29,753 nt of DNA from a virus (lineage: Duplodnaviria; Heunggongvirae; Uroviricota; Caudoviricetes). The stretch spans positions 1 to 29,753 of the IMG/VR virus record IMGVR_UViG_2541047785_000004; one strand, written 5' to 3'. The notes beneath the pieces are model-generated. The model was not told the DNA's origin and searched no databases. It worked only from the letters and a program-made list of their open reading frames with translations. Both the position numbers and the translations under genes were made by a program. Positions 12,725-24,207 of this stretch are shown piece after piece. Every line of letters begins with the position of its first letter. Positions within the stretch are counted from its first letter, which is position 1.

Positions 12725-13396
12725 CTATGAAAATGCCGCCTTTTGTTCTGAACGTGCTCCCTCCACCAACAATAAAGCTTCACCATCCAGCCGATGAAAA
12801 ATGTGTTTCATTGCAACCCAGTGACCAGTAAATGTCTTGGACCAGTTTTTGGTTGTTACTCCCACCAGTAACGCCAGTTCCTGGTATTCGTAACCTTCCC
12901 CACCAAAAAGCTCAGCTTTTACCGCCTGCGCCGCCAACCAGATCAACGTCTTCAGGCGCACCAGAGTTTTTCCTGCAATTTTTCTGGTACCGGATTGAGC
13001 ATTAAATTCAGTCCACGCCCACTGCGTTATCGCGATCTGATACTCCCAGCAAATGCTACCGCTGTAACACCACAGCAGCCAGGCTTTATGATGTTCTTCA
13101 AGAGACAGAACGGCGCGTCGCCATGATGATGTCGAAAACTCAACCGGACTGACCAGGGCAATTGAAGAACCTTTCGCCAGCGATTGCTTTCCCGGGATCG
13201 GTGGATTATCCAGCGTTACTATTTTTCCAGTGACCTTATCGCGGTACCGGATTTTTTTACGTCTGTAACGCCCTGTATTGAACATGGCATTCTCCTGCCA
13301 GGCTTCAAGCTGACCTTTTGTTGCTCCACTCAAATCAGCGGTGGCGATCGTGAGCTGCTCACGCACAAACTGTAAATACTGGTTATTCATGCGCAC
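12725..13396 (-). CDS. Putative late-gene antiterminator (Q-position protein, family not recognised), about 221 aa from the ATG at 13390
   Basis: Occupies the Q position between rusA and the late promoter/terminator; ATG at 13390 overlaps the rusA stop (ATGA). No Zn-finger like lambda Q; functional call rests on synteny only. Confidence 0.5.
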   Translation of the reverse strand: MRMNNQYLQFVREQLTIATADLSGATKGQLEAWQENAMFNTGRYRRKKIRYRDKVTGKIVTLDNPPIPGKQSLAKGSSIALVSPVEFSTSSWRRAVLSLEEHHKAWLLWCYSGSICWEYQIAITQWAWTEFNAQSGTRKIAGKTLVRLKTLIWLAAQAVKAELFGGEGYEYQELALLVGVTTKNWSKTFTGHWVAMKHIFHRLDGEALLLVEGARSEQKAAFS

Positions 13397-15505: not shown

Positions 15506-15988
15506 TTATAAAAAGTCAAATGATAGTTGATCCATATAAAATCCTAATTCGCGCAAAACCACCTCGGCAAACAAATCTGCTTGCCATTCAGCATCTTCAA
15601 TTTGCGAAGGTGGTTTATTGGAACTGTGAAATAACGCTCTATGCCCCAACACCAAATGTCCGATTTCATGAAAGAGCACAAATAATGCTTCTCTATCACC
15701 TTTACATGCCAACTCAAATGTATGATTCGGCACACTAATTGTCAGTGTAATTGGATCGTAATGCCCAGATGTCAAATCATATGTAGCTTTAGTCCACGCA
15801 CGATCCTCAACGATATTGAGCGTTATCCCATATTCACTCAACAACTCAAATGCATGGTCTAACCGCTTTTTTCTTTTCAACGTTTTAAGGTCGAAGATCG
15901 CGCTATAGTTAACAGCGCGAGTTGTTATATCAACAATACTCATTGGTGCAACACGATTTCCACGTAATGTGTAAGCTGATTGTTCCAA
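15506..15988 (-). CDS. ImmA/IrrE-family zinc metallopeptidase (HEIGH motif), 160 aa, TTG start
   Basis: FVLFHEIGHLVLGHRALF contains the HExxH zinc-binding motif typical of ImmA/IrrE (COG2856) peptidases; TTG start 6 nt after the HTH gene stop with GAGGG RBS. Confidence 0.8.
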   Translation of the reverse strand: MEQSAYTLRGNRVAPMSIVDITTRAVNYSAIFDLKTLKRKKRLDHAFELLSEYGITLNIVEDRAWTKATYDLTSGHYDPITLTISVPNHTFELACKGDREALFVLFHEIGHLVLGHRALFHSSNKPPSQIEDAEWQADLFAEVVLRELGFYMDQLSFDFL

Positions 15989-15991
15989 CGA

Positions 15992-16351
15992 TTATCCCTC
16001 AACATGATTAATACTTTTCATCAACTCTGCTATTCGCTTTAACTGCTCTGGTGTTAATGGGGATTTAGCAAAACCAGCAACCAACATTTGCTGATTTTGC
16101 GACAATCCATCAAGGGAAACAAACTGATTAGATACATCAGCCAATTCCTGAAGATTATTAATCTCATAACCTCTTTTCAGGAAAAAAGCCTGAATCTCTT
16201 TTACCCATTTTTTGGGGATTTTCTTACTGCCTGTTTCTAAACCGCTCAGAAAAGCTGAAGTTACTCCCAGTTCTTGGGCCATCGTAAGCAATGTGCAGTC
16301 GGTATCTATCCTCGCTTTTCTAACGGCCTTACCGAATTCAGTGAGTGCCAT
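15992..16351 (-). CDS. XRE-family helix-turn-helix transcriptional regulator, 119 aa
   Basis: N-terminal HTH (AVRKARIDTDCTLLTMAQELGVTSAFLSGLETG); GAGGA RBS; co-oriented with and immediately upstream of the ImmA-like gene. Confidence 0.85.
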   Translation of the reverse strand: MALTEFGKAVRKARIDTDCTLLTMAQELGVTSAFLSGLETGSKKIPKKWVKEIQAFFLKRGYEINNLQELADVSNQFVSLDGLSQNQQMLVAGFAKSPLTPEQLKRIAELMKSINHVEG

Positions 16352-16577
16352 AGTTAATTCCTCGATTCGCTATAAGTAACAGGCTGCCTATTTTCGGAGC
16401 ACAACCTGTGATGAAGACTTCATGACTAATAAATTATCATAAAAAATGATTTTGTAAACCATTTTGGTAAATTTATTATCTGAAAGCAAAAAAACGCCAA
16501 AGAGGGTTAAGCGCGGGTGCGTTGAGGATGCCGACACATCAGAGGTGGCGGGAGATTACTCTCCCGCCTGGTCACTC

Positions 16578-16733
16578 TTACTTCTCAGATTCGTAGTCCA
16601 CGAAGACAGCAACCTCCGTCTGGCCGGTTCGGATTCGTACCTCGCAGAGGTCTTTCCTCGTTACCAGTGCCGTCACTATGACGGTTAAACAGATGACGAT
16701 CAGGGCGATTAACATCGCCTTTTGCTGCTTCAT
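16578..16733 (-). CDS. hok: Hok/Gef-family type I toxin (HokD/RelF-like), 51 aa
   Basis: MKQQKAMLIALIVICLTVIVTALVTRKDLCEVRIRTGQTEVAVFVDYESEK: single TM helix plus the conserved LTRK.LCE.R...EVA.F..YE tail of Hok proteins; AAGGAG RBS 9 nt upstream; stable hairpin GGCGGGAG/CTCCCGCC (16547-16568) in the 3' region. Confidence 0.8.
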   Translation of the reverse strand: MKQQKAMLIALIVICLTVIVTALVTRKDLCEVRIRTGQTEVAVFVDYESEK

Positions 16734-17023: not shown

Positions 17024-17242
17024 ATGCCCACACTTATCGGAAAAGTGCTTCGTCGATACACAAGTGCTGTAGCAACCCATGTTGACACCCATCTTGAGCA
17101 AACGACAAAATATCGTCTTACAGTTGATGCGAACGGTAATGCCACCCTGAACATAGAAAACCCAGAAGTTCAAGCAGACATCATCAAGAAAATGAAACAA
17201 TTGCGAAAACTACATAACCGTACAGACAAGGAAGTTGCTTAA
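17024..17242 (+). CDS. Small soluble hypothetical protein (72 aa), first gene of a coupled two-gene cassette
   Basis: GGAGAG 6 nt upstream of the ATG at 17024; stop overlaps the downstream start (TAATG at 17240-17244). Confidence 0.55.
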   Translation: MPTLIGKVLRRYTSAVATHVDTHLEQTTKYRLTVDANGNATLNIENPEVQADIIKKMKQLRKLHNRTDKEVA

Positions 17243-18033
17243 TGGGTCCATTGATTATAACTGTGATTCTCGTGTGTGGTTTTTGGTACACCGAGAATCA
17301 CTATCAATCGAGAATTCATCACGCAAGAACAAATGGGTGGTCATCCTATTTCTACGTTGCAATGCATGGGTGTCGTTTTGTTGCTCAAGGATTTCTTTTG
17401 ACGCTCGGGATCTACATGCTTTTCTGGCTACTGAACTCTATCCCACACATAATCAATATTTTCCGAGACAAACCTATAGAATGGCATTTTTTTAATTGGT
17501 TACTTGAAACCAAAGTGATGGAATTACCACTTTTTGCTGTCATCACCATCATTTTCGCTTGTTGTATTGCTTACTCTGAAGGGGTGGATGCGCGAAAAGA
17601 AATGGAGAATGAAGAAGCGCGGCAAAAGGCTTACAGGGAGATGGCATCAAAAGATTCACTAGAAAACCTATTGATCCAAGCCATTGACACAGAGATGCTG
17701 ATTTTTGTAACACTAAAATCCAGAAAAGTATATATCGGGTATGTGGCAGCACCACGTGTTGAATTCCACAACAGTGCGCATCTTGAGATCATACCATTCA
17801 TTAGTGGTTACAGAGATAAGGATTCACTACGCTACATAGAACAACACCGATACTATGATCTCTATCTATCCAAAGAAATCACATTTGAGTCCGAACCATT
17901 AAATTTACAACATTTTCGACACGTCATTCCTATCGAACAAATTGAAGCGATCTCGCTCTTTGATGAAAGCACGTACAGCGATTTTGAAAGATTTTCCGAG
18001 CCAATGCCTGACACAAAGCAATTACCAGTATAG
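17242..18033 (+). CDS. Membrane protein with three N-terminal TM helices and a ~150-aa cytoplasmic domain of unknown function, 263 aa
   Basis: Hydrophobic segments PLIITVILVCGFWY, FLLTLGIYMLFWLLNSI, LPLFAVITIIFACCIAY, then a charged soluble domain; low GC; opposite strand to the flanking early-operon genes. Confidence 0.7.
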   Translation: MGPLIITVILVCGFWYTENHYQSRIHHARTNGWSSYFYVAMHGCRFVAQGFLLTLGIYMLFWLLNSIPHIINIFRDKPIEWHFFNWLLETKVMELPLFAVITIIFACCIAYSEGVDARKEMENEEARQKAYREMASKDSLENLLIQAIDTEMLIFVTLKSRKVYIGYVAAPRVEFHNSAHLEIIPFISGYRDKDSLRYIEQHRYYDLYLSKEITFESEPLNLQHFRHVIPIEQIEAISLFDESTYSDFERFSEPMPDTKQLPV

Positions 18034-18237
18034 TATTACCCCCCCCTCTAACGATATACTAAAAAGCCGCTACAACTGGACTGCCCCTATAAAGTTGGAC
18101 AGTTCATGTTAAGCGGCTTTCAGGGCTTGACCCAACAGAAGTTAGATTGTAAGTATCCCGCTTAAACGGACCATCTGGTCTTTGTTCCACGGTGACGTGC
18201 TCATACTCATACCTCCTGAAATGTGGGAGATTTGAGT

Positions 18238-18366
18238 ATGGTTGTCCCTTATGAGAGAAATTTGCACGAAGTGGATAAGTTACCGGAGCTGAAGGTCCGC
18301 TGTGAGCGAAGAGCGGACCTGAGATTGTGGTATGCTAATTTATGGGGATCAGGTCAATTGTATTAG
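18238..18366 (+). CDS. Possible 42-aa small ORF with hairpin-sequestered RBS
   Basis: GGGAGA 7 nt upstream of the ATG at 18238; peptide MVVPYERNLHEVDKLPELKVRCERRADLRLWYANLWGSGQLY; the RBS pairs with the upstream ACCTCC; contains a 9-bp perfect stem (18293-18320). Confidence 0.25.
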   Translation: MVVPYERNLHEVDKLPELKVRCERRADLRLWYANLWGSGQLY

Positions 18367-19055
18367 TTATCTTTTTGCTTTTCTTTATCCCATTTCTTTG
18401 CAGTGGTCTGATACCACTCTTCACGTACTCGTTGTTCCTCGGCTCTGTCACTTGAATTATAGTTGTCTGTTTTAATTTTTTTGCTTCCATGGGAAATCGG
18501 CCTCCAGTCTTCTCTAATCTTTTTCACCTGCTCGGCTATCTGTGTCATTGGACTCCTTGCACCTAAGTAGCTAACCCCCTCGAAAGAAGCCATATCATAA
18601 GAATACTCATTCCGCTCTCTTTCAGTTGAGCCCGGCTGTTTAGACCAACTAATACTAACAGAATAAACTTGATCTTTAATCTGTTCATACTTACAAAGAC
18701 TGCTGTTGAGCGAATGGCCGTTTTTTAATACGCTAACCTTGCTAAATGGTATACCTATATTTTTTCTATGTTCAGCATTTACCAGTGGGGGATTAAATCC
18801 GATTTCAATATCATAGGCTGGGGCATTTCCGGTATTAGCAATATTGATATCAAAATAAAAAGCAGCCCAAGAATTTGGTTCAAGAGTCACAACGACGTGA
18901 GGTTGAACTGATGCGTCAACCATCCTTTTTGTCTCGTCTGCTAATAGCCTTGTTACTCTCCACAAGAAAAATGTAGCAACTGCTGTTAGCAATGCTGCCA
19001 AAGCGGAGATAAGTGTGCTTACTGTGTTTATATGCTCTGCGATAAATTCGATCAT
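18363..19055 (-). CDS. Membrane-anchored hypothetical protein (single N-terminal TM, ~190-aa soluble domain), 230 aa
   Basis: AAGGA RBS 7 nt upstream of the ATG; N-terminal helix VSTLISALAALLTAVATFFLW; own long (~450 bp) upstream region; low GC. Confidence 0.7.
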   Translation of the reverse strand: MIEFIAEHINTVSTLISALAALLTAVATFFLWRVTRLLADETKRMVDASVQPHVVVTLEPNSWAAFYFDINIANTGNAPAYDIEIGFNPPLVNAEHRKNIGIPFSKVSVLKNGHSLNSSLCKYEQIKDQVYSVSISWSKQPGSTERERNEYSYDMASFEGVSYLGARSPMTQIAEQVKKIREDWRPISHGSKKIKTDNYNSSDRAEEQRVREEWYQTTAKKWDKEKQKDN

Positions 19056-19543
19056 GAGTTGTCCTTGGGGGCGTACTAATTGTTTTCAAGACTAAAATAG
19101 CGCCGGGCTTGAAAAATTGCACACTTATGGTTCGATTTACCTCAACAGTTAAGGCTTCAGCTTCCCCCATGCACCTCACCCAGCTCAAGGCTGTATGATG
19201 TCTGACAAAGAACTTACTGACACTTGAAAACGAGGTAGCGGCTAGGATTTCTCGTAGGGGAAGGATTGAATACGAAGCCTGTATATTGCTCCGCGAACGC
19301 TGCTGAGAGCAGTTTAAATGTTGGGCGTTTATGTGGCCTTTCACTCACCAGCATGAGTTCAATGCCTGTGAATTACCGACAACAATATAAAGGGGGTGGC
19401 ATCATATATCCAAGGTAGAGTCAAATCCTTTAACTGGTTTTATGATCAGCGTCAATTGTTTAATTATTGAACGTTTACGAAGCGGCACGGGAGTCATATA
19501 ACTAATGGGCAGGTATAAGCCTGTATCACGAGGAATCAGTAAA

Positions 19544-19723
19544 ATGGCTGATGATAAGACCAAAATCGGTACCCCTGACAATGATTTAATAAGTATCAAA
19601 CAGGATTACGAAAGACGTGATTGGGCTGAAAAGTTTGGAGTTAGCGAGGCCAAACTTGTTCAAGCCGTACAGGCTGTAGGTCATTCGGCTAAGAAAGTAC
19701 AGGCATGGCTTAAAGACCATTAA
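19544..19723 (+). CDS. DUF3606-family small protein, ~59 aa from the ATG at 19544 (track ORF begins at 19505)
   Basis: MADDKTKIGTPDNDLISIKQDYERRDWAEKFGVSEAKLVQAVQAVGHSAKKVQAWLKDH matches the DUF3606 pattern (…D..Y…W..K.GVS…L..AV..VG.S…V…L). Confidence 0.65.
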   Translation: MADDKTKIGTPDNDLISIKQDYERRDWAEKFGVSEAKLVQAVQAVGHSAKKVQAWLKDH

Positions 19724-19728
19724 TATAT

Positions 19729-19756
19729 GAGCGCCTTTCTAGGCGCTTTTTTCTTT
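19729..19756 (+). terminator. Rho-independent terminator after the DUF3606 gene
   Basis: agcgcct-ttct-aggcgct followed by ttttttcttt. Confidence 0.7.
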
Positions 19757-19775
19757 GTCCTTTTGGAGATGATTT

Positions 19776-20054
19776 ATGGCTAATAATTTATTTATTACTT
19801 ATGATCTCATTAAAACGAAAGATTATGCGGCTGTGTATGATGCAATTAAATCTTTAGGAAATTGGGCTTTAACAACTGAATCGAACTGGTATGTTAACTG
19901 TAGTTACTCTGCCGAGGATGCAGCCAAAATTGTGAGGGCGGTCATGGATAGTGATGATAAACTTATTGTTGTAGACGCAACCAATAACTTAGTTTATTGG
20001 TACAATCTCTCTGATGAAGTTAGTAACCAAATTCAGACTGAGTGGTACAAGTAA
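19776..20054 (+). CDS. Hypothetical protein, 92 aa
   Basis: GGAG RBS; complete ORF MANNLFITYDLIKTKDYAAVYDAIKSLGNW...; followed by the aaaggggg/ccccccttt hairpin. Confidence 0.6.
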   Translation: MANNLFITYDLIKTKDYAAVYDAIKSLGNWALTTESNWYVNCSYSAEDAAKIVRAVMDSDDKLIVVDATNNLVYWYNLSDEVSNQIQTEWYK

Positions 20055-20055
20055 T

Positions 20056-20080
20056 TAAAGGGGGATACCCCCCTTTAATT
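20056..20080. terminator. Palindromic G/C hairpin (aaaggggg-atac-ccccccttt) between convergent genes, possible bidirectional terminator
   Basis: Perfect 8-9 bp stem flanked by A/T runs on both sides. Confidence 0.5.
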
Positions 20081-20282
20081 CAGAAACTATCATGATTGAA
20101 ACATTAAATATACTGGGTTTATTCTATCATCCCTGCTCTCTTGCTATATGTCCTGAAAGCGTTCTTTTAAACCTTCTGCTCAATATGTCCGGTAATGGCA
20201 CAAAGCGGACAACCACGCTAGCTCTACCCTATGCCATGAAAATGTCAATTCACATATTAATTAATGCTCTTAAATATCATCA

Positions 20283-20702
20283 CTACAATAAATACCGAAC
20301 ATCTCCCTGATAAAACGACAATATGCGCTTCATAACTTCGCTTTTACGGCACTCACTACAAATTATATTATGACGCCTGTCGTAACGACGTATTTCTCCG
20401 TCTGGTAATGACCAAATAAGGTCTGGATCAACCACAACTGGTTTCTTCACCTTTGCCCTCGATAGTTTTTTGCGGGCGTTTTGCCAGTCTTTACGTGCCT
20501 GCTCAGACGGGAATAACCCGTAGCCAGAGTTGTATACGTCACCATTCGCAACCAACTCCCTGGCAAGAACACTTATCTGATATCTTGTCGCCCCCGTTTT
20601 AGCTTCCAGTTGTCGTAACGTCTCGCGCCCACTCTGGCGTACGAGATCAACGATCTGCCCTTTAATTTTTTCCCGCTCTTCCTGTGTAAATACTTTTGCC
20701 AT
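20283..20702 (-). CDS. Hypothetical early-operon protein, 139 aa from the ATG at 20702
   Basis: GGGGAGGG RBS before the ATG at 20702; basic protein with a CxxC (SECRKSE) near the C-terminus; follows the P-like gene. Confidence 0.6.
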   Translation of the reverse strand: MAKVFTQEEREKIKGQIVDLVRQSGRETLRQLEAKTGATRYQISVLARELVANGDVYNSGYGLFPSEQARKDWQNARKKLSRAKVKKPVVVDPDLIWSLPDGEIRRYDRRHNIICSECRKSEVMKRILSFYQGDVRYLL

Positions 20703-20718
20703 AAGCCCTCCCCTGGAA

Positions 20719-21513
20719 TCACTTTTCCGACACAATACGACTGGAGGAATCGACAATCTGTCGGACAATATCCCGGTGCTTGTTCAGCTCCCGCAGCGCG
20801 GCGCAGACTCGCTCCCACTTCTGGACATGACTTTTCGCCCGGCGAAGTTCGCGGCTTGCCATATGCAGCGATGGTAAAATCAGGCCATTCGCTCGCGTTT
20901 CGGTGAACGATGGCAACGACTGCACAATGTCCCCCACAGTATCTGTTTTAATTTCTTCCTGTGTTGCCGCTTCCTGTACTGGTAACGCAACACCGGCTGG
21001 CTGAGGAAAGCCTTTACCAGGTGTTTTCGCTACCGATACAACTTTCGGCTCTGCTGGTAAATTTTCCCCGGTTTCTTTTACCAGCATCCACTTACACCCC
21101 TTCCCCTGTCCCAGCTTAATCGCCATGCCATCGCGGCAAAGCTTTTCCATCGCAGAAACCAGCGACCTGACGCAATCAGCACGCCCCACAGCAATTGCAA
21201 TCTCAGCGGTGGTCATTGCCCCACTATGAGCAAGTGTGGACAGGATTTCGCAGCGTTTCAGTGGCTCACGCTCTTTTCTACTGACCACCGGATGGGATTT
21301 TCTTTCCACTTTACACACCGTTACTTTTTTTTCTTTCACGCCCGTTTGTCGTTCTGAAACAGACCAGTAACCATTAACCGACACAACTTCTCCCAGCTCT
21401 TCGTACTCCCTCAGCATTTTAATCGCCTCTGCAGGTTCAATGCCCAAACTGGCAGCAAGCTCGGTGCACGTCACCTTTTGCATCGCTTTTAACGTATCAA
21501 TCAACGTTTCCAT
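20719..21513 (-). CDS. Replication-module protein at the P position (no Walker motif recognised), ~264 aa from the ATG at 21513
   Basis: GGGAGA RBS before the ATG at 21513; two winged-helix-like segments; immediately follows the O-like initiator. Function inferred from position only. Confidence 0.5.
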   Translation of the reverse strand: METLIDTLKAMQKVTCTELAASLGIEPAEAIKMLREYEELGEVVSVNGYWSVSERQTGVKEKKVTVCKVERKSHPVVSRKEREPLKRCEILSTLAHSGAMTTAEIAIAVGRADCVRSLVSAMEKLCRDGMAIKLGQGKGCKWMLVKETGENLPAEPKVVSVAKTPGKGFPQPAGVALPVQEAATQEEIKTDTVGDIVQSLPSFTETRANGLILPSLHMASRELRRAKSHVQKWERVCAALRELNKHRDIVRQIVDSSSRIVSEK

Positions 21514-21557
21514 CAAAATTTCTCCCGTTAAAATCATTTACCAATCTCAAACCAAAC

Positions 21558-22520
21558 TTATCCCCTGAACCCTGGCGGAATTTCGGTGTCCGGTTCAGAA
21601 ATATGATTCACACAACGCTGTACAGGCGAACGCCCCAGACGGATAACCAGCTCATCCCATTTATCGCGAAGTTTTGACGGACTCATGATGTTTTTTACCC
21701 AGAATGGATCCCGCTGTACCCGACCAAACATTTCGCAGATTTGTCTGTGAGTTCTGCCATCCAGCATCCGCATTATGCGCACGTCATTGGCCCATGCTGT
21801 CCAGTTGGGTTCTTTCGGTCGGGTGATCTCGCCATCATCGCTGGCGGCCTGTTCGTAAAGACTCACGATTCGCCCCCAGATCCACTGTGCGCATGCCAAA
21901 TCCTCCTGATTTCCCCACTGACGTTTTTTTGCACTAAACACAATCGCATCAGGATGTCGGGTTAAAAAGTCCTGTTCAGCCGTCTGCGGGTCCGGTTGCG
22001 AAGCTTCCGGACGAAAAGATCTTTTATCTGACGGATCAGGTTTTAATACTGACGGATCGGGGCCAACCATCGCCCCCCTAACCGGCTGTTTTTTACAAAC
22101 GGTTGATCCATCAAAATTTGACGGGTCAATCGTTGAGGGGGCAATATTTGACTGGTCAACTGTTAACGGGTCATTTTTTGCCGGGCTAATTTTTCTTTTC
22201 GGTTTATATGCCTCACGCGCCGCCTCAGCTGCTGCTTCGAGTTTTTCCACATTAAGGCGGTAGATATTGCTTTCATTACGCCCACCGACCTTACGCTCCT
22301 CCTTCGTCAGCCAGCCGTTCTTTTCCAGTTCCGCTATCGCCGCTTTAACCGTTGATTCACTCTTTGCCCCAATCTGACGACGAATGGTCTCCACTGCAGG
22401 CCATGACACACCTTCGTCATTGCTGTAGTCTGCAAGGCGAGCCATTACTGCCACCCTGGATAAGATCATGCCGGTGAAGGCGCACCCTTCCCAGACAAGA
22501 CCATGAAGCTTGCTGCTCAT
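21558..22520 (-). CDS. Replication initiator (lambda O analogue) carrying the origin iterons in its coding sequence, 320 aa
   Basis: N-terminal HTH-like region (VSWPAVETIRRQIGAKSESTVKAAIAELEKNGWL), central repetitive peptide (PLTVDQSNIAPSTIDPSNFDGSTV) encoded by DNA iterons, and an AT-rich tract on the 5' side of the iterons. Confidence 0.75.
   Translation of the reverse strand: MSSKLHGLVWEGCAFTGMILSRVAVMARLADYSNDEGVSWPAVETIRRQIGAKSESTVKAAIAELEKNGWLTKEERKVGGRNESNIYRLNVEKLEAAAEAAREAYKPKRKISPAKNDPLTVDQSNIAPSTIDPSNFDGSTVCKKQPVRGAMVGPDPSVLKPDPSDKRSFRPEASQPDPQTAEQDFLTRHPDAIVFSAKKRQWGNQEDLACAQWIWGRIVSLYEQAASDDGEITRPKEPNWTAWANDVRIMRMLDGRTHRQICEMFGRVQRDPFWVKNIMSPSKLRDKWDELVIRLGRSPVQRCVNHISEPDTEIPPGFRG
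22026..22205. repeat. Origin of replication: six iterons (TTGAC-GG-GTCAA type) plus adjacent AT-rich tract, inside the O-like gene
   Basis: ctgacggatcagg (22028-22040), ctgacggatcgg (22049-22060), ttgatccatcaa (22103-22114), ttgacgggtcaa (22118-22129), ttgactggtcaa (22148-22159), ttaacgggtcat (22163-22174), then tcattttttgccgggctaatttttcttttcggtttatatg. Confidence 0.7.
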
Positions 22521-22969: not shown

Positions 22970-22991
22970 GAATCATTTGCCTCTTGATGTT

Positions 22992-23288
22992 TCAGGTATG
23001 ATCAAATGAGGATTTGTTACTGTCATTTAGTTGCTTCACTGACATATTCTGCGAACAACATGCCGAACGTCGTAAATATGACCAGTCAATATCAGGACGA
23101 AGTTCTTCGCACAGAACCTCACCTCTTGTTGCACGTTCAATTGCTGGACATCTCTCGGCAGGCAATTGACGTACCCCTTTGATCCATTGATTTACGCTTG
23201 GAGGTGATACACCTAAAAGCCTAGCCATTGCTGATTGCCCACCGACAACAGCACAAGCTTGCTTGAATGAATAGTTCTCTTTTTTCAT
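22992..23288 (-). CDS. ydaS: Cro-like HTH regulator (YdaS-like), 98 aa
   Basis: MKKENYSFKQACAVVGGQSAMARLLGVSPPSVNQWIKGVRQLP... HTH; divergent from the repressor gene with operators between; matches Rac YdaS as recalled. Confidence 0.8.
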   Translation of the reverse strand: MKKENYSFKQACAVVGGQSAMARLLGVSPPSVNQWIKGVRQLPAERCPAIERATRGEVLCEELRPDIDWSYLRRSACCSQNMSVKQLNDSNKSSFDHT

Positions 23289-23411
23289 CGAATGAACTCC
23301 AAAAACACACAGAAATATTAGGCGACGCCTAACGTAAATGTCAATAGGCTATGCCTAATGCGATAAAGGTAGGGATTGCCTAATGCAATGAGCATAGGAG
23401 AATATTAAGCA
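23289..23411. promoter_or_regulatory. Right operator/promoter region: palindromic operators TTAGGC-N3-GCCTAA overlapping a TTGACA-N18-TAATAT promoter for the cro-like gene
   Basis: Perfect palindrome ttaggcgacgcctaa (23318-23332); taggctatgcctaa (23345-23358); half-site ttgcctaatgca (23376-23387); minus-strand -35 TTGACA (23339-23344), -10 TAATAT (23315-23320). Confidence 0.65.
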
Positions 23412-23888
23412 ATGCTTAGTGGTAAAGACTTAGGCCGAGCGATAGAGCAGGCCATTAACAAAAAAATCGCATCGGGATCCGTCAAATCAAAGGCGGAGGT
23501 CGCACGCCACTTCAAAGTCCAACCACCATCAATTTATGACTGGATTAAGAAAGGCTCTATAAGTAAAGATAAACTTCCAGAATTATGGCGTTTCTTTTCT
23601 GATGTTGTTGGTCCAGAGCATTGGGGGCTTAACGAATACCCCATACCAACCCCCACCAATTCAGATACAAAAAGTGAACTTTTAGATATAAACAACCTTT
23701 ATCAAGCAGCCTCTGATGAAATAAGAGCGATTGTAGCTTTCCTGTTATCTGGAAATGCTACAGAACCAGATTGGGTTGACCACGATGTTCGCGCCTACAT
23801 AGCAGCGATGGAAATGAAAGTGGGTAAGTATCTGAAAGCTCTAGAATCTGAACGGAAAAGCCAGAACATCACAAAAACTGGAACTTAA
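23412..23888 (+). CDS. racR: Prophage repressor (RacR-like), 158 aa
   Basis: AGGAG RBS; HTH AEVARHFKVQPPSIYDWIKKGS; divergent from the cro-like gene and flanked on both sides by the same operator repeats; matches Rac RacR as recalled. Confidence 0.8.
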   Translation: MLSGKDLGRAIEQAINKKIASGSVKSKAEVARHFKVQPPSIYDWIKKGSISKDKLPELWRFFSDVVGPEHWGLNEYPIPTPTNSDTKSELLDINNLYQAASDEIRAIVAFLLSGNATEPDWVDHDVRAYIAAMEMKVGKYLKALESERKSQNITKTGT

Positions 23889-23960
23889 ACTTATATGGTC
23901 TGACGGAAAACTCCTAGATTCCGTTATTTAACCCCCCCATCACTTTCTGCTGTCGCCATC

Positions 23961-24027
23961 ACCTATTAGGTTACGATCAAAACATTAGGCATAGCCTATT
24001 GACAATCAATTAGGCATTACCTATAGT
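23961..24027 (+). promoter_or_regulatory. Left operator/promoter region (pL-like): TTGACA-N17-TATAGT with overlapping TTAGGCAT(A/T)(G/A)CCTA operators
   Basis: ttaggcatagccta (23985-23998), ttaggcattaccta (24010-24023); -35 TTGACA 23999-24004, -10 TATAGT 24022-24027; mirrors the cctattgaca motif of the right promoter. Confidence 0.6.
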
Positions 24028-24207
24028 TCCAGCATACCACCCACCCCGCCCCACAGAACGCAGGGCAATACTTCGAGTTACCAGGCAGTGGTCAGGGGTT
24101 AAGTAGCCAGCCCGAGGCGTAAGAACATGACGGCAGGGTTCAACTTTAATAACTATGCAGCAGGTTTTTGTTCCGCTACCCCGGCGTTAAGGGGACATGA
24201 GGTCAAC

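Follow-up and report, generated by a model that had tools for sequence, protein, structure and literature searches.

A DUF3606 gene and a gene for a predicted Cas2-superfamily-like protein in a cassette shared by temperate phages

Two small plus-strand genes of the IMG/VR virus record IMGVR_UViG_2541047785_000004 were found to form the core of a low-G+C cassette that recurs in other temperate phages. The stretch of DNA analyzed, called the window here, covers positions 1 to 29,753 of that record and is an Escherichia coli lambdoid (lambda-like) prophage with its integration site beside yccA. The first gene encodes a DUF3606 protein of 59 amino acids (aa) and the second a 92-aa protein which, as judged from its predicted structure, stands alone and has a fold like that of the Cas2 superfamily. 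As an earlier note on this DNA had stated, both genes run against the early operon, which is on the minus strand. Our working explanation, which we put at somewhat below an even chance, is that the pair is a two-gene moron operon, expressed in the lysogen, coupled through an attenuator and active in conflict between mobile elements. The coordinates of all features are collected in Table 1.

The two proteins and their predicted folds

The earlier note had left the second protein unassigned, and structure prediction now suggests a superfamily for it. An AlphaFold model based on 43 homologues reached a pLDDT of 95 and a pTM of 0.84. Its elements follow the order beta1-alpha1-beta2-beta3-alpha2-beta4-beta5-alpha3, which contains the ferredoxin-like core (beta1-alpha1-beta2-beta3-alpha2-beta4) of the Cas2/VapD superfamily. 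When the model was compared with the Protein Data Bank (PDB) by Foldseek, BPSL1038 and the Cas2 proteins of several CRISPR types came out on top with a probability of 1.0 and E values of only 6e-3 to 5e-2, and the Campylobacter jejuni VapD-VapW complex (9kan) was also among the matches. Identity to E. coli Cas2 is 8-11%. Profile searches gave recurrent weak matches. The 92-aa protein itself stayed below threshold for all curated Cas2 and VapD profiles (E 0.02 to PADLOC Cas2_II), and the best values among the 43 members were E 6.8e-5 (PADLOC Cas2) and 2e-3 (Pfam CRISPR_Cas2), none at the curated cut-off. Sub-threshold matches among these members were to PADLOC Cas2d (21), Cas2_II (10) and Cas2_IIIa (9), Pfam CRISPR_Cas2 (18) and DUF3884 (24). 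A search of PDB sequences with the family profile found no Cas2, and one with the 92-aa protein alone likewise gave no meaningful match. Some relatives are labelled 'Cas2' in public records.

Conserved positions point to the same superfamily. Y9-D10 is invariant in the 43 close homologues, and D10 is the equivalent of the catalytic (or metal-binding) aspartate of Cas2 and VapD. Of 107 representatives, 91 (85%) have D or E at position 10, where strand 1 ends, 88% have S or T at the S36 position and 97% keep D61. In view of the fold, the recurrent weak matches to Cas2 models and the conserved aspartate, we describe the protein as standing alone and as having a Cas2-superfamily-like fold, but not as a proven Cas2. 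It has its fold and the location of the aspartate in common with CRISPR Cas2, whereas the family has motifs of its own: MANNLF at the N-terminus, S-x-W-Y and D-x-x-D-K-L. Gene calls for the window and for the neighborhoods inspected contain no cas1 or other cas gene, although CRISPR arrays were not searched for. The gene is under purifying selection (nonsynonymous divergence, pN, of 0.15-0.21 against saturated synonymous divergence, pS). The family is very large, with 2,424 clusters at 50% identity (E <=1e-3), and its members occur in temperate phages and islands. It spans Proteobacteria, Bacteroidota, Acidobacteriota, Planctomycetota and Firmicutes phages, and the isoelectric point (pI) of its members ranges from 4.2 to 9.7.

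Among solved structures, the closest relative is that of Burkholderia pseudomallei BPSL1038 (PDB 7vxr), a protein which has been described as a solitary DNase of a 'Cas2/VapD nuclease sub-family' (PMC10491678). Like the 92-aa protein, it is solitary, is about 90 aa long, has no CRISPR association and carries an aspartate that closes strand 1. Both combine a Cas2-type ferredoxin fold with extra C-terminal elements, which in our model are an additional strand and a final helix. However, the two do not match at the sequence level. The BPSL1038 signature D11(X20)SST is absent from the 92-aa protein, where D10 is followed 25 residues on by S36 in an E-S-N-W-Y context, and the R10/R30 'arginine clamp' is likewise absent from this acidic protein. 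Also unlike BPSL1038, the 92-aa gene is carried by phages and islands and has a small partner upstream.

Ten longer relatives were also scanned for domains. One, a metagenomic protein of 1,507 aa (P0178), has Baseplate_J and CBM_5_12 domains and carries two copies of the Cas2-like domain inside the large protein, and the scan of the others gave nothing. The Cas2-like domain is duplicated in tandem in several proteins of 200-260 aa. Either P0178 and the duplications put the fold to structural or binding use, or they are gene-call fusions.

For the first protein, the profile search bore out the family proposed in the earlier note. The 59-aa protein is a full-length, high-scoring member of DUF3606 (PF12244; 66.2 bits against a gathering cut-off of 24.3, E 2.2e-18, profile positions 1-54 of 54), and its length fits this family of small stand-alone proteins of about 57-72 aa. 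A Shine-Dalgarno (SD) sequence, GAGGAA at 19530-19535, stands 8 nt 5' of the ATG at 19544, and we therefore placed the start there rather than at the upstream ATG at 19505, in agreement with RefSeq. A dN/dS of 0.03-0.04 indicates purifying selection. The predicted model (pLDDT 77, moderate confidence) consists of a disordered N-terminal tail and a compact UBA-like three-helix bundle, whose top structural neighbors are the N-terminal domain of EF-Ts and UBA domains (Z <=4.8). These neighbors weakly suggest a protein-binding module rather than a classical DNA-binding antitoxin, and the predicted fold is not of the ribbon-helix-helix (RHH), helix-turn-helix (HTH), AbrB or Phd type. A sequence search of the PDB gave no meaningful match, and the best match in PADLOC-DB v2 was only E 0.023, to the C-terminus of PDC-M03B. 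The closest relatives outside the enterobacteria (Burkholderiales, ~60% identity) are chromosomal and solitary, whereas the gene of the window is fixed upstream of the Cas2-like gene on mobile elements.

Nested borders, spread and origin of the cassette

The earlier note had limited the unit to the two reading frames, from 19544 to 20054. The real unit is larger and nested: a core two-gene module runs from 19429 to ~20199, inside a cassette that extends from 18303 to ~20240. The cassette is 94-97% identical in the P2-like R18C, a viable phage, in the 'Z-region' of P2-EC53, in 17 IMG/VR contigs and in a Pantoea genome. Its left border is always 18303 and its right border falls at 20210-20254. 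About 100 of 5,426 complete E. coli genomes (about 2%) carry it, and the island allele described below is present in ~12 more. In R18C and P2-EC53 it lies between the tail-fiber and tail-sheath genes and thus occupies exactly the fun(Z) moron site, where P2 itself has a different gene. In lambdoid prophages it lies between DUF977 and downstream cargo, in the region from the replication genes to Q.

The fun(Z), tin and old loci are non-essential moron loci of P2 according to the review by Christie and Calendar, as cited in PMC6823313, and fun(Z) is a documented hot spot for accessory and defense genes (PMC9122126, PMC13586616). The cassette has no similarity to fun, tin or old and, in contrast to the P2 morons, also occurs in the lambdoid early region. 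The description of R18C had noted two unknown open reading frames (ORFs) at the fun(Z) site, one of them DUF3606 (PMC6823313). Together with the integrase-proximal copies on islands, this distribution upholds the cargo site of the earlier note and shows the same DNA as mobile cargo of unrelated types of temperate phage and of islands. Inverted repeats have been annotated at the flanks in P2-EC53 (AJ512682), but no convincing pair was found in the window, R18C or P2-EC53, and they are therefore not used here as evidence of a transposition mechanism.

The core module recurs at ~80% DNA identity in enterobacterial islands and small prophage-like elements, where it adjoins a tyrosine integrase gene at the island end. 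In the island alleles L004 and L121, similarity to the window begins abruptly at 19429, just 5' of the palindrome CTGGTTTTATGATCAG (19434-19449), and it passes the stop codon of the Cas2-like gene into the 3' end of the island integrase gene, up to 20199. This integrase gene lies convergent to the pair on the islands. A decayed 3' end of such a gene, with three in-frame stops, follows the Cas2-like gene in the window as well (23 of 41 residues identical to the L004 integrase, tblastn E 3e-7). This relic is the trace of the island that supplied the module, and it shows that the cassette of the phages was put together from the integrase-proximal end of such an island. A 72-aa ORF called at this place is probably spurious because the relic underlies it.

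The history of the module is mosaic. The upstream block is about 88% identical to that of L004 and L121, while the adjacent gene has a synonymous divergence of 0.29-0.37. The DUF3606 block (pS 0.29-0.37) is much younger than the Cas2-like gene (pS ~0.8). Since the two are of different ages yet still adjacent, recombination has swapped one side while the junction was maintained.

Transcript layout, pairing and rival explanations

Both hairpins reported in the earlier note were found at their places. The one between the genes (19729-19748, with a T-run behind it) has a folding energy of -13.3 kcal/mol (z -3.65), which 1 of 200 shuffled sequences equaled. The G/C palindrome at the end of the Cas2-like gene folds at about -17.3 to -17.5 kcal/mol (z about -3.6 to -3.8; 0 of 200 shuffles as good), does so equally well on the minus strand and has a counterpart at the equivalent place in L004 and L121. 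An Rfam scan of 18000-20600 gave noise only. The note had taken each gene to end at a terminator of its own. For the first hairpin this fits less well than attenuation: the genes are co-directional and 52 nt apart, and from the hairpin to the start codon of the Cas2-like gene there are only 27 nt. As 27 nt leave no room for a promoter, the Cas2-like gene would have to depend on read-through, and the intergenic hairpin is therefore probably an attenuator within one transcription unit rather than the end of an independent gene.

This layout is conserved among the enterobacteria. In 11 of 11 non-redundant enterobacterial Cas2-like alleles, a small upstream ORF is followed by a GCGCC...GGCGC hairpin, a T-rich tract, GGAG and ATGGCTAA. 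The upstream ORF encodes DUF3606 in four of them and an unrelated ~40-aa lysine-rich peptide in seven, with the consensus ..R(S/D)A(I/K)TGQF(V/I)...TT(V/I).ETIK.P.KK, and the stem is kept with either gene. A Pfam scan of the peptide gave no match. DUF3606 and the Cas2-like gene stay together in three diverged enterobacterial alleles, which supports the co-occurrence expected from the earlier note within this group.

The ~40-aa peptides form an unannotated family (for example MSKRKVVRSAITGQFVPEVEAKRHPKTTVTETIKYPKKEKK), members of which were seen in loci L010-L014, L026-L028, L120, L122, L153 and L060, and one in a Planctomycetales metagenome-assembled genome. Neighbors upstream of the module are often small hydrophilic proteins of a 'stress type'. 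In some loci the module is accompanied by a small repeat-containing hydrophilic protein with a weak Con-6-like match (L004, 4282-4530, minus strand), and in others by DUF2188-like small proteins, recognized by eye only (upstream ORF of L039).

Upstream of the DUF3606 gene, a candidate promoter was read by eye as TTTACG (19474-19479), a spacer of 17 and TATAAC (19497-19502). The palindrome CTGGTTTTATGATCAG, of the form CTG-N10-CAG, sits ~25 nt upstream of the candidate -35 and is conserved in three alleles. A LexA (SOS) box was considered for it and rejected, as only 11 of 20 positions fit the 20-nt consensus in our own comparison. The bare CTG-N10-CAG pattern occurs 12 times in the window, where about 6 occurrences are expected. 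The palindrome is thus a possible operator, and not an SOS box.

Since its transcription runs counter to that of the lytic early operon, the unit is probably expressed in the lysogen. Under our working explanation, the control region at 19429-19543 would drive an abundant DUF3606 protein, and leaky read-through of the attenuator would yield a scarce Cas2-like protein, giving a high-to-low dosage ratio. The palindrome at 20053-20080, a strong terminator, would stop the transcript and shield it from early transcription that converges on it. As effector we propose the Cas2-like protein, which would be a dimer of the VapD or BPSL1038 type that may bind metal or nucleic acid or target another protein; the small protein encoded upstream would partner or regulate it. 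The role in conflict between mobile elements might be exclusion of other phages or maintenance of the element.

The surroundings of homologues give some clues to function. Members of the Cas2-like family adjoin integrases in several loci. Others lie beside the defense genes Wadjet and BrxR and an ImmA/HTH pair, or behind a ThiF-like gene in an element that has a serine recombinase. The distant homologues of Enterococcus phiFL1A and Clostridium CP51 are lone genes too; as in the window, they run against the early operon, and they share the orientation of the lysogeny genes (integrase, ImmA and repressor). A general orientation rule for the family was considered and rejected, since the flanks were mixed in 81 non-redundant loci (30 same/opposite, 26 same/same, 13 opposite/same and 10 opposite/opposite).

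Several results weigh against a functionally coupled conflict operon. Of 91 non-redundant Cas2-like loci, only 3 have DUF3606 upstream and about 7 have the ~40-aa peptide there. The commonest neighbor of any kind occurs in 7 of the 91, and many loci beyond Enterobacterales have no small upstream ORF. The pairing expected by the earlier note is thus not obligate. In Yersinia ruckeri and Burkholderiales, DUF3606 has no Cas2-like neighbor and is mostly solitary. The promoter scan did not call the candidate promoter, whose match to the consensus is weak. The 11 hairpin variants contain no compensatory pairs and only single-side G-U changes, which are uninformative. A net charge of -6, as in the 92-aa copy, is unusual for a nucleic-acid enzyme. 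None of the three cassette proteins (the pair and a 230-aa protein) matches a defense model in PADLOC-DB v2. Literature searches found no experimental report and nothing beyond 'hypothetical moron': DUF3606 turned up in just two papers, of which one is the R18C description, and neither the supplements of Rousset 2022 nor a search on P2-EC53 yielded anything.

One alternative is that no function links the two genes and that they hitch-hike side by side. The DUF3606 gene would then have a promoter and a terminator to itself and encode a small hydrophilic protein of the stress type, the Cas2-like gene would be a solo accessory, and their joint travel would result from one ancestral juxtaposition copied as a block. 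We regard this as possible though rather doubtful. It is consistent with a Cas2-like family that is overwhelmingly solo or has unrelated neighbors, with DUF3606 genes that stand alone in Y. ruckeri and among other small hydrophilic ORFs in Burkholderiales, with the terminator-like hairpin between the genes and with the different divergence histories on its two sides. However, the distance from the hairpin to the Cas2-like start is too short for a separate promoter, all enterobacterial alleles keep a small ORF and the hairpin even when the protein is a different one, and the adjacency has outlasted recombination that replaced one side.

Another possible explanation is a classical type II toxin-antitoxin pair of the VapXD or VapD-VapW kind, in which DUF3606 would be a labile antitoxin and autorepressor and the 92-aa protein a Cas2/VapD-like endoribonuclease toxin that stabilizes the element. 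VapD with VapX or VapW also consists of a small upstream gene and a ~90-aa Cas2-fold protein on a mobile element, so the order and sizes (59 aa, then 92 aa) suit, as do the fold with an aspartate at the catalytic position, the presence of 9kan among the Foldseek matches and the location beside integrases at island ends. The upstream partner is interchangeable, as antitoxins are, and the attenuator would hold its product in excess. Yet VapD operons are tight, whereas here a 52-nt gap with a terminator takes the place of gene overlap and the partner is either DUF3606, with a UBA-like model instead of an RHH, HTH or AbrB fold, or the ~40-aa peptide. Most family members have no candidate antitoxin, which would be intolerable for a toxin; as the partner is absent from most loci outside Enterobacterales, an obligate pair is hard to reconcile with the data. 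DUF3606 is also widespread without a Cas2-like partner, the 92-aa protein is acidic, and BPSL1038 is reported to be a solitary, non-toxic DNase (PMC10491678). Together these points make a toxin-antitoxin pair improbable. We consider an anti-defense role more improbable still. A Cas2 look-alike could be a decoy, poisoning the Cas1-Cas2 adaptation complex of the host, or could block another defense protein, with DUF3606 as an accessory, and a small, acidic, phage-encoded protein with a Cas2-like fold in variable hot spots would fit this. But orientation and a separate transcription unit point to expression in the lysogen and not in early infection, similarity to E. coli Cas2 is very low, the family is common in chromosomal islands and in inspected lineages without nearby cas genes, and there is no experimental hint. 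The earlier note had suggested a regulator, an anti-defense factor or a toxin-antitoxin-like pair; as put there this finds no support, since the evidence separates none of the three.

If the attenuator-coupled conflict operon that we tentatively favor were typical, it might represent a large family of stand-alone, prophage-expressed Cas2-like conflict effectors (for defense or addiction) that act independently of CRISPR and are checked by interchangeable small partners through a ratio set by attenuation. This wider extension seems unlikely to us, though less so than a toxin-antitoxin pair.

Prophage setting and implications

Table 1. Features of the window that bear on the two-gene module and its surroundings
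Feature	Position	Strand	Basis or remark
Mobile low-G+C cassette, 1.95 kb	18303-20240	.	Common to lambdoid prophages and P2-like phages
230-aa protein gene, N-terminal hydrophobic helix	18363-19055	-	phrog_11802 (E 2.8e-145); annotated in AJ512682
Sigma-70-like promoter TGGATA-17-TATATT for the 230-aa gene	19384-19412	-	Promoter scan, consensus match only
Conserved upstream block of the two-gene module	19429-19543	+	Palindrome, candidate promoter, SD
DUF3606 gene, 59 aa	19544-19723	+	Pfam PF12244; RefSeq annotation in near-identical prophage
Intrinsic-terminator-like hairpin and T-run, between the two genes	19729-19756	+	Fold and shuffles
Stand-alone Cas2-superfamily-like gene (predicted), 92 aa, pI 4.3	19776-20054	+	SD GGAGA 19765-19769; annotated in RefSeq; phrog_1090 (E 3.5e-24)
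Palindromic G/C hairpin, terminator-like	20053-20080	both	End of the Cas2-like gene
72-aa ORF (probably spurious)	20092-20310	+	Overlaps the integrase relic; no family match
Decayed 3' end of tyrosine integrase gene, three in-frame stops	20101-20214	-	tblastn with L004 integrase
Antiterminator Q	12725-13396	-	Early-right operon, far downstream of DUF977
DUF977 gene	20283-20768	-	Early-right operon
DUF1627 gene	20719-21537	-	Early-right operon
O-like HTH_36 gene	21558-22520	-	Early-right operon
YdaT-like gene	after the cro-like gene	-	Early-right operon
cro-like gene (YdaS/P22_Cro)	22992-23288	-	Early-right operon

The 230-aa protein, the third product of the cassette, is the 'ORF1 putative lysogenic conversion protein' of P2-EC53 (AJ512682), and Pfam and PADLOC scans gave no match for it. 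The -10 of its candidate promoter coincides with the -10 annotated in AJ512682 and implies a 5' untranslated region of ~320 nt. Its family is widespread in Proteobacteria, where homologues adjoin integrases or, in a P4-like element, an AbiJ-domain gene; another homologue fills the slot that the peptide and Cas2-like module holds in a related island. We rejected the 230-aa protein as an obligate third component, since homologues occur elsewhere without the pair and the island alleles of the pair lack the gene. It is hot-spot cargo independent of the pair and a candidate exclusion or abortive-infection protein. A 234-aa neighbor of DUF3606 in Y. ruckeri was considered as a relative and proved to be unrelated.

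Two further observations concern these loci. Some cassettes, those of Pantoea leporis and of two IMG/VR contigs, have an insertion of ~312 bp (L025, 3193-3506; L118 and L119) in the spacer that separates the 230-aa gene from DUF3606 (near 19283 of the window). In one island type, the slot behind a gene for a Cys-rich 88-91-aa protein with two RMF-like motifs (weak match to Pfam RMF, E 0.04; L010, 4476-4751; L162, 3645-3911) holds either the peptide and Cas2-like module or a 230-aa homologue.

A prophage of strain EC43 is near-identical to the window. The pair has 36-38% G+C against 50-53% in the adjoining early genes, and a stretch of ~5 kb between DUF977 and Q has 36-45%. This stretch holds other cargo. 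At 15506-16351 on the minus strand, distant from the prophage's own immunity region, lie an HTH_3 gene and a Peptidase_M78 (ImmA/IrrE-like) gene, both with Pfam matches marginally under the curated cut-offs. The type I toxin gene hokD (~16577-16732, minus strand) was named through the RefSeq annotation of the EC43 prophage. A gene at 17242-18033 on the plus strand encodes a 263-aa protein with several hydrophobic segments (phrog_3630/23864) and without a Pfam family. The interval from 15.5 to 20.3 kb thus looks like a stack of morons. The immunity region at 22977-24034, with the cro-like gene and a divergent 158-aa gene, differs from that of the EC43 prophage, which is 99% identical elsewhere, and is a swapped immunity module. 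A Pfam scan of the 158-aa putative repressor gave no match.

Earlier records had listed the genes as hypothetical morons, and DUF3606 was an existing Pfam family. What is added here is the assignment of a predicted fold, the nested borders, the integrase relic, an architecture with an interchangeable partner and a probable attenuator, and the limits of the pairing. As it stands, the module is an ordinary uncharacterized moron that is better annotated than before. The small size of the pair (~770 bp) and of the whole cassette, together with a viable host phage in R18C, makes it easily testable. The cassette is a clean example of one cargo that moves among P2-like phages, lambdoid phages and integrative islands and that carries a relic recording its origin. 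If a role in exclusion, addiction or anti-defense proved true, it would be a CRISPR-independent job for the Cas2 fold and the first function for DUF3606.

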